A DNA stretch of 64,000 nucleotides from an uncultured Bacteroidales bacterium (GTDB lineage: Bacteria > Bacteroidota > Bacteroidia > Bacteroidales > Paludibacteraceae): assembly GCA_900319645.1 (NCBI GenBank), contig ONPG01000008.1, forward strand, positions 643 to 64,642. Direction: 5' to 3'. Below are positions 41,940 to 43,976 of the stretch, in pieces. The translations under genes were made by a program, and so were the position numbers. Below the pieces are notes generated by a model that searched no databases, had not been told where the DNA came from, and was given only the letters and a program-made list of their open reading frames with translations. Every line of letters starts with the position of its first letter. Positions within the stretch are counted from its first letter, which is position 1.

Positions 41940-42013
41940 GCTTCCTTAGCTCAGTCGGTTAGAGCATCTGACTGTTAATCAGGGGGTCCTAGGTTCAAGT
42001 CCTAGAGGGAGCG
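41940..42013 (+). tRNA. tRNA-Asn (anticodon GTT)
   Basis: A 74-nt cloverleaf was folded by hand. Acceptor GCTTCCT pairs with AGGGAGC, D stem GCTC with GAGC, and T arm CTAGG-TTCAAGT-CCTAG. The anticodon loop is CTGTTAA. CCA is not encoded. Confidence 0.93.
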
Positions 42014-42015
42014 CA

Positions 42016-42047
42016 AGAGTGACGACAAAAATCGTCACTCTTTTTTT
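42016..42047 (+). terminator. Rho-independent terminator after tRNA-Asn
   Basis: AGAGTGACGA-CAAAAA-TCGTCACTCT followed by TTTTTT. Confidence 0.75.
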
Positions 42048-42070
42048 CTTTATAAAAAATACGCGCGCGC

Positions 42071-42101
42071 TTGCATATATGAAAAAAAAGTTGTACCTTT
42101 G
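42071..42101 (+). promoter_or_regulatory. Bacteroidota-type promoter (TTGCATATATG...TACCTTTG) with no annotated gene behind it
   Basis: Exact N20 spacing. It is part of a ~45-bp module (ACGCGCGCGCTTGCATATATGAAAAAAAAGTTGTAMCTTTGCAC) that is duplicated at 42776-42819. Confidence 0.55.
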
Positions 42102-42107
42102 CACAAT

Positions 42108-42682
42108 TTTTCAACTCTTCCGTTCCCTACTCCCCTTTTAACACTCAGATTTTGCTTGTTTTTCCATTCAGGTCTGAATGGTTGGGCTGTTGTTGGGGTA
42201 AGTCAGGGTACGAGAAGGACCAACAAAGGACTAACTTATATCCAACTTATCTCTAACGCTTAGGTGCAGATTGGGAACTGAATGGGAAAGCGGGATACTA
42301 TCCCGCACAATGGACATTGAGCCCGACTAAGTCCTTTAGCTTATAGCAGGAGGTACTCCGGATAATATCCGGCACAACAGATGAAGGGGAAGGGATGAGG
42401 GAAAGGAAAGGGATGTCCGAATTAAATTCGGACGCAATGGACATACAAAAAAATGACATGTCAGTTTTGGCAGTATTGTCAGTTTCTATCATTTTGACAG
42501 TAAGGTACGCTGCGGGGAGTAGCAGAATGGTAGAGAAACAGGGAGAAACCACAGGGAATCTTACATTTTGTAAAGAAAATGACAAAACTGACAAAAGTGA
42601 CATGCAAAAAATTAATAGGGAGGAACAGATGGCTGAAGAATAAACGAAAATTCCCGATGAAATCGGGCGTTTTTGCGTTTTT
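42108..42682 (+). ncRNA. Candidate ~570-nt transcript (structured ncRNA, or a long-leader small-protein mRNA); family unknown
   Basis: It is bounded by the 42071 promoter and the 42653 terminator. Three hairpin-plus-CAATGGACAT-like units are present. A 5' pyrimidine tract is complementary to an internal purine tract. The only sense ORF is 82 codons (42395..42643). Confidence 0.3.
42653..42682 (+). terminator. Rho-independent terminator
   Basis: CCCGAT-GAA-ATCGGG followed by CGTTTTTGCGTTTTT. Confidence 0.55.
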
Positions 42683-42785
42683 GGATGTTTTAGTAAAATG
42701 TTATTGCGATGCTATTTGGACCCCAAAAAGCGGCTGCACCGGTGCGCCGGGGCGCAATTATTATTCATAAAAATGACGCGCGCGC

Positions 42786-42816
42786 TTGCATATATGAAAA
42801 AAAAGTTGTAACTTTG
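42786..42816 (+). promoter_or_regulatory. Bacteroidota-type promoter (TTGCATATATG...TAACTTTG) for the mreB operon
   Basis: Exact N20 spacing. It would give a ~135-nt leader before the mreB ATG. Confidence 0.55.
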
Positions 42817-42819
42817 CAC

Positions 42820-42917
42820 GTTTTTTCATAGTTTGCATCAATATGGGCAAACGAAAAGACGGTTGAGGAGATCCACGTGAAGCGTGTTTTTCATAATTTG
42901 CGTAATTATGGACAAAC
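42820..42917 (+). repeat. Two ~33-nt direct repeats in the mreB leader
   Basis: GTTTTTTCATAGTTTGCATCAATATGGGCAAAC (42820-42852) and GTGTTTTTCATAATTTGCGTAATTATGGACAAAC (42884-42917). Confidence 0.7.
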
Positions 42918-42956
42918 CAATCGGGAATAGCAAATGACTAAATTGTAAATAATTTT

Positions 42957-43976
42957 ATGGGACTTTTTTCTTTTACACAAGAGGTGGCTATAGACCTCGG
43001 CACAGCGAACACCATCATCATCTGCGATGACAAAGTGGTGGTAGATGAGCCTTCAGTAGTAGCTATCTCGGTTGCAGAAAACAAAATGGTGGCTGTTGGC
43101 CGCAAAGCACAGCAGATGATCGGTAAGGGAGGCAACCTCATCCGCACAATCCGTCCATTGCGAGACGGCGTTATCGCGGATTTCTATGCCTGCGAAATGA
43201 TGATCAGAGGTATGATCAAGATGATTCCCAAGCAGACACGCTTGTTCACGCCGTCGATCCGTATGGTTGTATGTATTCCTTCGGGTTCGACCGAGGTCGA
43301 GATACGTGCCGTACGTGACAGTTCGGAGCACGCAGGAGGCAGAGACATCTACATGATCTACGAGCCGATGGCAGCAGCGATAGGTATCGGTCTGGACGTA
43401 GAGAGCCCCGAAGGATGTATGATTGTGGATATCGGCGGTGGAACTACCGAGATTGCCGTGATCTCGCTTGGAGGTATCGTCAGCAACAAATCGATCAAAA
43501 TCGCCGGTGATGATTTCAACCAGGACATTATCGAGTATATGGGTCGTATGCACAACCTCCGTATAGACGAACCAACGGCTGAGCGCATCAAGATCCAAGT
43601 AGGCTCCGCGCTGCCGGAACTCGAAGACGCACCGGAAGACTTCATCGTAGTGGGTCCCAACAAAGTGACAGCTCTCCCGATCTCAGTGCCTATCAGTTAT
43701 CAGGAGATAGCTCATTGCTTGGAGAAAAGTGTCTCGAAGATCGAGGGTGCTATTCTGCAGGCACTTGAATCTACACCGCCTGAGTTGTACTCGGATATTG
43801 TGAAACGAGGTATCTATCTGACGGGCGGCGGTGCGCTGCTCCACGGTCTGGCCAAACGTCTGACCGACAAGATCACGATACCGTTCCACGTGGCTGACGA
43901 CCCCTTGCACTCGGTAGCACGAGGAACGGGTGTGGCACTGAAAAATGTGCGCAATTTCGGCTTCCTGATCCGATAA
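42957..43976 (+). CDS. mreB: Rod shape-determining protein MreB
   Basis: 339-aa actin-like ATPase with the blocks DLGTANT and DIGGGTTE. Confidence 0.95.
   Translation: MGLFSFTQEVAIDLGTANTIIICDDKVVVDEPSVVAISVAENKMVAVGRKAQQMIGKGGNLIRTIRPLRDGVIADFYACEMMIRGMIKMIPKQTRLFTPSIRMVVCIPSGSTEVEIRAVRDSSEHAGGRDIYMIYEPMAAAIGIGLDVESPEGCMIVDIGGGTTEIAVISLGGIVSNKSIKIAGDDFNQDIIEYMGRMHNLRIDEPTAERIKIQVGSALPELEDAPEDFIVVGPNKVTALPISVPISYQEIAHCLEKSVSKIEGAILQALESTPPELYSDIVKRGIYLTGGGALLHGLAKRLTDKITIPFHVADDPLHSVARGTGVALKNVRNFGFLIR

Follow-up and report, generated by a model that had tools for sequence, protein, structure and literature searches.

The closest described counterparts of the element analysed here are the REP families, including the GTAG/CGTC-tagged superfamilies, and the BIMEs (bacterial interspersed mosaic elements) of Proteobacteria (PMC3733652). 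At the protein level, TnpA_REP (RAYT) subclass 2.6 of Bacteroidetes comes nearest among described groups; 'atypical secondary structures' flank its genes (PMC6006769).

We analysed a locus between tRNA-Asn and mreB in a 64,000-nt stretch of DNA (the window) from an uncultured Bacteroidales bacterium of the family Paludibacteraceae. A preliminary description had drawn attention to an orphan transcription unit at this locus. As in REP elements and BIMEs, the hairpin units in the window are short, with 7-8 bp stems, a conserved unpaired tag and dozens of dispersed copies. We think it probable that the whole unit is a gene-less mosaic repeat cassette of the REP/BIME kind, which the lineage of this species acquired at the mreB promoter.

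An insertion at the mreB promoter

All features of the unit that had been read from the sequence were found again, at or within 1 nt of their earlier coordinates (Table 1). In the consensus promoter, TTG stands at 42071 and the -7 box, TACCTTTG, occupies 42094-42101; the terminator consists of a hairpin at 42653-42667 followed by T-runs. No conventional gene lies in between. The interval contains three hairpin units, TGACA clusters, an open frame at 42395-42643 and an 8-bp hairpin at 42164-42181 (1 nt off the earlier coordinates). It also contains a pyrimidine tract (42117-42139) and a purine tract (42383-42413), and the centroid fold pairs both. The RNA fold of 42108-42682 is much more stable than that of shuffled sequences (z = -5.7), and the palindromic repeat modules described below probably account for much of this stability. 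In an Rfam 15 scan, run at gathering scores and at E up to 10, tRNA was the sole match. The best non-tRNA score within 42100-42700 was 21 bits against a cut-off of 60 bits. The Rfam/Infernal search that had been proposed for the unit thus assigns it to no known family.

Table 1. Coordinates of the features between tRNA-Asn and mreB (positions in the window).
Feature	Position	Strand	Remarks
tRNA-Asn (GTT)	41940..42014	+	ARAGORN; Rfam tRNA 69.8 bits; left anchor of the locus
tRNA intrinsic terminator, 11-bp stem and T-run	42015..42042	+	equivalent hairpin after tRNA-Asn in relatives
71-nt direct repeat, left copy; ancestral mreB promoter, -7 box 42094-42101	42043..42113	+	
Inserted segment, 644 nt	42114..42757	+	in 4/4 conspecific assemblies; not in other congeneric species searched
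'M0' leader-like module variant (ACTAAC...CTAACGCTT)	42206..42261	+	82% match over 56 nt, E 9e-9, to G072
Hairpin-plus-tail (REP-like) module 1: 7-bp stem, 3-nt loop, tail CACAATGGACAT	42287..42322	+	R1 43.4 bits, E 1.7e-6
Hairpin-plus-tail module 2, tail degenerate	42354..42389	+	R1 35.3 bits, E 1.4e-4
82-codon ORF, judged spurious	42395..42643	+	hydrophobic 'helix' is the translated left iteron arm
Hairpin-plus-tail module 3, 8-bp stem	42413..42449	+	R1 36.1 bits, E 8.4e-5; deleted in strain L195
Long-loop iteron inverted-repeat module	42443..42613	.	arms 42457-42487 and 42574-42604, 3 x 9 nt each (TGTCAGTTT type); 92-nt loop
Intrinsic terminator-like hairpin, 6-bp GC stem extended by A/U pairs, and T-runs	42653..42682	+	
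71-nt direct repeat, right copy; promoter predicted to drive mreBCD now, -7 box 42809-42816	42758..42828	+	
mreB leader tandem duplication, ~65 nt	42822..42920	+	polymorphic between strains
mreB	42957..43976	+	Pfam MreB_Mbl; right anchor of the locus

We compared the 1.5 kb upstream of mreB in the 29 closest congeners, 13 of which have tRNA-Asn there. In 12 of these 13, the spacer between tRNA-Asn and mreB is 147-294 nt long and holds the tRNA terminator, one promoter and a short leader. The spacer measures 538 nt in the thirteenth congener (G066) and 942 nt in the window. The excess in the window, ~715 bp, matches the offset of 715 nt between the two copies of a 71-nt direct repeat; these copies are 89% identical and each contain a promoter. 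The left copy keeps the ancestral upstream junction, in which the tRNA terminator leads directly to the promoter as in relatives. The mreB leader follows the right copy.

When the whole unit was searched for at the DNA level, none of 266 congeneric genomes contained it, and an earlier search of 24 gave the same result; only module-sized matches appeared. The orphan transcription unit stands as an arrangement, with a promoter, ~560 nt free of genes and a terminator. A conserved sRNA gene does not, because the content of the spacer is missing from those 266 genomes. The synteny check suggested for this spacer also went against the unit, which has no orthologue among the other congeners searched. 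Conspecific copies are ~99% identical, too few changes for a test of covariation, including that of the long pyrimidine-purine helix. These data indicate that the unit is a species-specific, recent insertion of non-coding, hairpin-forming repeat DNA between two standard promoters.

The same site has received other DNA. The sister species G003 carries a 6.3-kb insert at this mreB promoter, with a promoter copy on each side, and G066 carries a different insert of ~350 nt. Because of these two inserts, the mreB promoter site is an insertion hot spot. The island in G003 (L206, G003:C5:121500-130200), also between tRNA-Asn and mreB, encodes an Xre-type HTH protein, a REase-ARP nuclease, a gyrase-A-like fragment, a DnaE-like polymerase (PHP and pol III alpha) and a 167-aa protein. 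By eye, and in N-termini only, the last resembles small genes that follow iteron modules elsewhere. For the insert in the window, we found no target-site signature and no donor locus. Its 5' 92 nt (42114-42205) and 3' 144 nt (42614-42757) have relatives in conspecific strains only, and a 25-mer from the unique 5' part had no match in metagenome contigs.

The promoter is anything but specific to the unit. Its 21-nt core is present three times in the window, before the tRNA, the unit and mreB, against zero copies expected. Across the genome, the 35-nt promoter motif has 20, 73 and 200 copies at up to 3, 5 and 7 mismatches, and a reversed-sequence control has none. The motif is present in many copies in every congeneric genome searched. 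The promoter of the unit is thus the stereotyped stock promoter of the genus. Genome-wide, promoters are unusually uniform, with ~200 sites at least 80% identical to the 35-nt consensus, and a consensus of this length is long enough to provide dispersed homology for recombination.

Repeat modules of the insert

Three module types that are found elsewhere in the genome and the genus make up 408 of the 644 inserted nucleotides (42206-42613). For the 36-nt hairpin unit, a covariance model (R1) was built from 25 copies (alignment A2). R1 has 36 matches in the genome, all three window units among them. It also matches 28 of 36 congeners, with 1-18 copies each, and none of 24 other families of the order. 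The stem covaries, with 13 double-change cells compared to 2.7 in shuffles, and a scan with the strict hairpin-tail pattern gave 75 matches compared to 16 in the control. In viral contigs the exact pattern had no match.

The units are dispersed short palindromes with a conserved unpaired tag, as REPs are. Here the tag is the 3' tail, and the GTAG/CGTC superfamily tag at the foot of the stem is absent. Most copies have CGTC 6 nt from the stem on the opposite strand, where the window copies have TGTC. We did not find the REPIN arrangement of an inverted REP pair forming one long hairpin; the units are tandem and co-oriented.

Hairpin units are also found within genes. Five tandem 36-nt units stand in frame within a DUF3987 gene (C40:123965-124143), where they read as 12-residue repeats and look like repeat expansion in a protein loop. 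One further unit is in frame on C23, and four lie antisense inside an 802-aa BT4734_N+DUF3987 gene on C19. Others are in the 5' leaders of genes on C17 and C35. We considered whether the modules are remnants of DUF3987 genes and rejected this, as the similarity is limited to the 36-nt units. A decayed gene as the source of the insert was also rejected, as tblastx against the genome gave only frame-independent repeat matches.

The second module type is the long-loop iteron inverted repeat, whose arms are 87% complementary. This module of ~165 nt has paralogues on C13, C23, C29, C30 and C40, and its subtype is ~70% identical over 165 nt in G204, G263, G199 and G096. A scan for 3x9-mer arrays returned 10 inverted arrays in the genome, nine of them with typical iteron cores, and 49 across the loci examined. 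They fall into at least eight iteron classes, with loops that are tight, ~90 nt long or filled with nested modules. Both the cores and the 9-bp phase are kept in the arms, and the bases of the spacers vary from one arm to the other in a conserved manner. Of the hallmarks of a MITE, the iteron module has arms in inverted orientation and ends rich in A, but no target-site duplication or empty site could be defined; what flanks the whole insert is the 71-nt direct repeat. The inverted 9-mer arrays probably either bind a protein or are selfish palindromes. GCAC, GTCAG and GCC iteron arrays stand in series upstream of a RelB-PIN toxin-antitoxin operon at L058 (G000:C29:37997-38320). Among L074 (G263:C7), L100 and L174, one mosaic element is bracketed by ~90-nt inverted repeats, each with an outward-facing consensus promoter, and elsewhere the loops of iteron palindromes hold further iteron palindromes.

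The third type is a leader-like variant at 42206-42261, whose counterpart in G072 occupies the gap between two divergently transcribed genes. The main M0 nhmmer profile finds six copies in the genome and none in the window, where this segment is not significant, and we claim no canonical M0 here. In pattern scans, the main leader-like family is present in rumen and gut Paludibacteraceae and in other Bacteroidales assemblies, with many copies per genome, more than 10 in some. This ~100-nt module consists of tandem ACTAAGAA-type 10-mers followed by a small hairpin and an A-run. It is located 5-30 nt upstream of the start codon in housekeeping-type genes (L079, L099, L113, L160, L168, L105, L188), which include rsmH-like, dapF-like and ABC ATPase genes as read from N-terminal translations only. 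The leader-like module could be a mobile promoter or leader.

On C20, C40 and C13, M0 and inverted-repeat modules are again followed by arrays of hairpin units set among GA-rich sequence. Outside this locus, the modules lack a consensus promoter in the forward direction, and most copies are found 240-430 nt behind a promoter directed away from them. Given this placement, the unit does not come from an RNA-gene family, and any transcription of the window copy is due solely to its landing site.

Coding potential, strain divergence and competing readings

One reading takes the unit as the gene of a small single-pass membrane protein (76-82 residues), whose translation would start at 42395 or 42413, downstream of a long leader. 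The frame is open, includes a hydrophobic stretch and stops 10 nt before the terminator. Pfam and homologue searches with this ORF and with two other small frames gave nothing above threshold, apart from three near-identical metagenome ORFs. These are the only database relatives of the ORF and lie on conspecific contigs at the same insertion site. Even among conspecific strains the frame is broken, by 2-nt and 1-nt deletions in L194 and by the 1-nt deletion in L196. In L195, a 108-nt deletion (42400-42507) removes both start codons and the hydrophobic segment. This segment is a translation of the 9-nt iterons, and the paralogous iteron arms run in other frames or into stops and do not keep the frame of the ORF. 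We consider a protein product highly improbable, and the small-protein alternative of the preliminary description falls.

The insert is far less diverged between strains than its surroundings. Conspecific copies of the unit differ by 1.0-1.4% substitutions and three indels, and the neighbouring genes have dS of 0.10-0.21 and dN of ~0-0.005. Neutral junk of equal age should be about ten times more diverged than the unit. Given this difference, the unit is either constrained, and hence functional, or of more recent origin than the strains, among which recombination near promoter cores would have spread it. A recombination tract spanning the neighbouring genes is not supported as the cause of the low divergence, since pfkB, 320 nt to the left, already has a dS of 0.11 and divergence jumps at promoter copy 2. 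The two promoter copies differ from each other by 11%, and each is nearly invariant among strains, which points to a cassette that brought its own promoter along rather than to simple duplication. The tandem duplication in the mreB leader comprises two units of 34 nt that each contain a small hairpin. Since the window strain and L196 have it and L194 and L195 do not, this polymorphism is recent.

If the low divergence reflects constraint, the unit might be a young, species-specific structured ncRNA. In such a molecule, predicted at ~560 nt, the repeated hairpins and their GGAC-containing single-stranded tails, set in GA-rich linkers, would act on other transcripts, or would bind or titrate an RNA-binding protein. 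The unit has the two signals looked for in an sRNA gene, its own promoter (-33/-7, 42071-42101) and an intrinsic terminator, and both are intact in every conspecific assembly that covers them. The fold stability, the divergence about ten times below flanking dS, the recurrence of hairpin-tail arrays in GA-rich context and the sense orientation of modules in the 5' leaders of several genes are consistent with this reading. However, other congeneric species searched lack the unit, and L195 tolerates a deletion that takes out one module along with an arm of the longest helix, with small indels in two further strains. The paralogous arrays are inconsistent in promoter, terminator and orientation, and modules also lie antisense inside a DUF3987 gene. 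On balance, a functional RNA appears unlikely to us.

Constraint could also act on the DNA. The iteron inverted repeat and the hairpin units would then be a cis element, with putative protein-binding sites that modulate or insulate promoter copy 2 of mreB. The inverted array lies ~180-330 nt upstream of that promoter, and other copies also lie in gaps behind promoters. Kept hexamer cores and a 9-bp phase with differing spacers fit protein binding better than an RNA helix, and the low strain divergence fits as well. However, with at least eight iteron classes no single regulator explains all arrays, relatives run mreB without any such element, and strain L195 lacks the left arm. A dedicated regulatory element is thus a still fainter prospect, which we regard as very doubtful.

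We return to the mosaic repeat cassette. Such mosaics would normally occupy an untranscribed gap upstream of promoters. In this lineage, a mosaic region together with its promoter would have recombined into the core of the mreB promoter. The old promoter would now fire into the repeats, with transcription ending at the terminator at 42653-42682, and the new promoter copy would drive mreBCD. A transcript of ~560 nt is plausible, as predicted from a consensus promoter followed by ~560 gene-less nucleotides and a terminator. Such an RNA would arise as a by-product, with no dedicated regulatory role. Judged from the sequence, the unit is real and probably transcribed, but it is probably an incidental stretch.

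A broader idea concerns the route of entry. The 35-45-nt genus promoter might itself be a portable recombination site, homologous or site-specific, so that promoter-bounded cassettes, coding or not, hop or exchange between promoters and between strains. If so, the unit would be a gene-less cassette of this traffic. The idea would explain the flanking promoter copies, the independent 6.3-kb cassette in G003 and the roughly tenfold lower divergence of the cassette. We put it forward tentatively, with limited expectation that it holds.

The analysis removes a false candidate for an sRNA or micro-protein gene. It also points to how such candidates may arise in these rumen Bacteroidales, where repeat mosaics land beside near-identical promoters. 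Transcription from a housekeeping promoter can then run into selfish DNA, and the gene is rescued by a second promoter copy. With ~1% divergence in the cassette and a dS of 0.1-0.2 in its flanks, the locus offers a concrete test case for recombination at promoter cores.

RAYT-like genes and comparison with known systems

Four genes in the genome, at C31:68156-69031 and on C24, C41 and C47, encode proteins of ~335 aa with HUH (DHLH or DHFH) and Y...NP motifs. The C31 gene lies ~3.5 kb past the end of the window. These RAYT-like proteins have a long C-terminal extension, and their genes are multi-copy. Their best NCBIfam match is REP_Tyr_transpos ('REP-associated tyrosine transposase'), whose scores of 27.5 and 46.5 bits stay below the cut-off of 80. 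With Pfam Y1_Tnp, only the C24 copy exceeds the cut-off (28.6 bits).

Hairpin units flank the RAYT-like gene on both sides in G018 and G023 and lie just downstream of it in G004, G011 and G000:C47. The distances are 50-270 nt, at loci chosen because both match lists named the same contig. The C24, C41 and C31 copies have no flanking units, which leaves only one of the four genome copies flanked. All C31-type copies have a unit-like 36-nt hairpin insert in frame in their linker. Congeners with a RAYT-like gene have a mean of 7.2 modules and those without have 3.3, in related genomes that are non-independent samples. Because the loci were pre-selected and three of the four genome copies have no flanking units, the link between RAYT-like genes and hairpin units is only suggestive. 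These RAYT-like HUH (Y1) transposases probably mobilise the 36-nt hairpin-plus-tail units in the form of single-stranded DNA hairpins. With its in-frame 36-nt hairpin units, phased 9-mer palindromes and multi-copy RAYT-like genes, the repeat system may merit the attention of specialists.

The hairpin units resemble BIMEs in being clustered into mosaics with other motifs, in their covarying stems, and in being lineage-restricted with variable copy number. Those that stand in frame inside genes recall intragenic forms such as the Rickettsia palindromic elements. Unlike REPs, which have GTAG/CGTC at the foot of the stem, the units have as their tag a 13-nt 3' tail of the AAYGGACRWAG type, and they are mostly tandem and co-oriented instead of forming head-to-head dimers. 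The 3x9-nt iteron palindromes and the leader-like module have no counterpart in BIMEs.

Like TnpA_REP subclass 2.6, the RAYT-like proteins are Y1/HUH proteins of Bacteroidota, with non-GTAG hairpins that flank the gene at several loci and are copied elsewhere in the genome. However, they are ~335 aa long, with a C-terminal extension of ~190 aa, compared to ~179 aa in subclass 2.6. Their motifs are DH[LF]H and Y-x-x-x-NP, where subclass 2.6 has NH[LIV]H and YIH[QN]NP. The gene is also multi-copy here (four copies) and scores below curated cut-offs.

Unlike Correia elements and other MITEs that carry or create promoters and terminators beside genes, the insert as a whole has neither terminal inverted repeats nor a target-site duplication that we could find, and the repeat that flanks it is the 71-nt promoter region. 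It is like them in being a small non-coding insertion that reshapes the transcription signals of a housekeeping gene.
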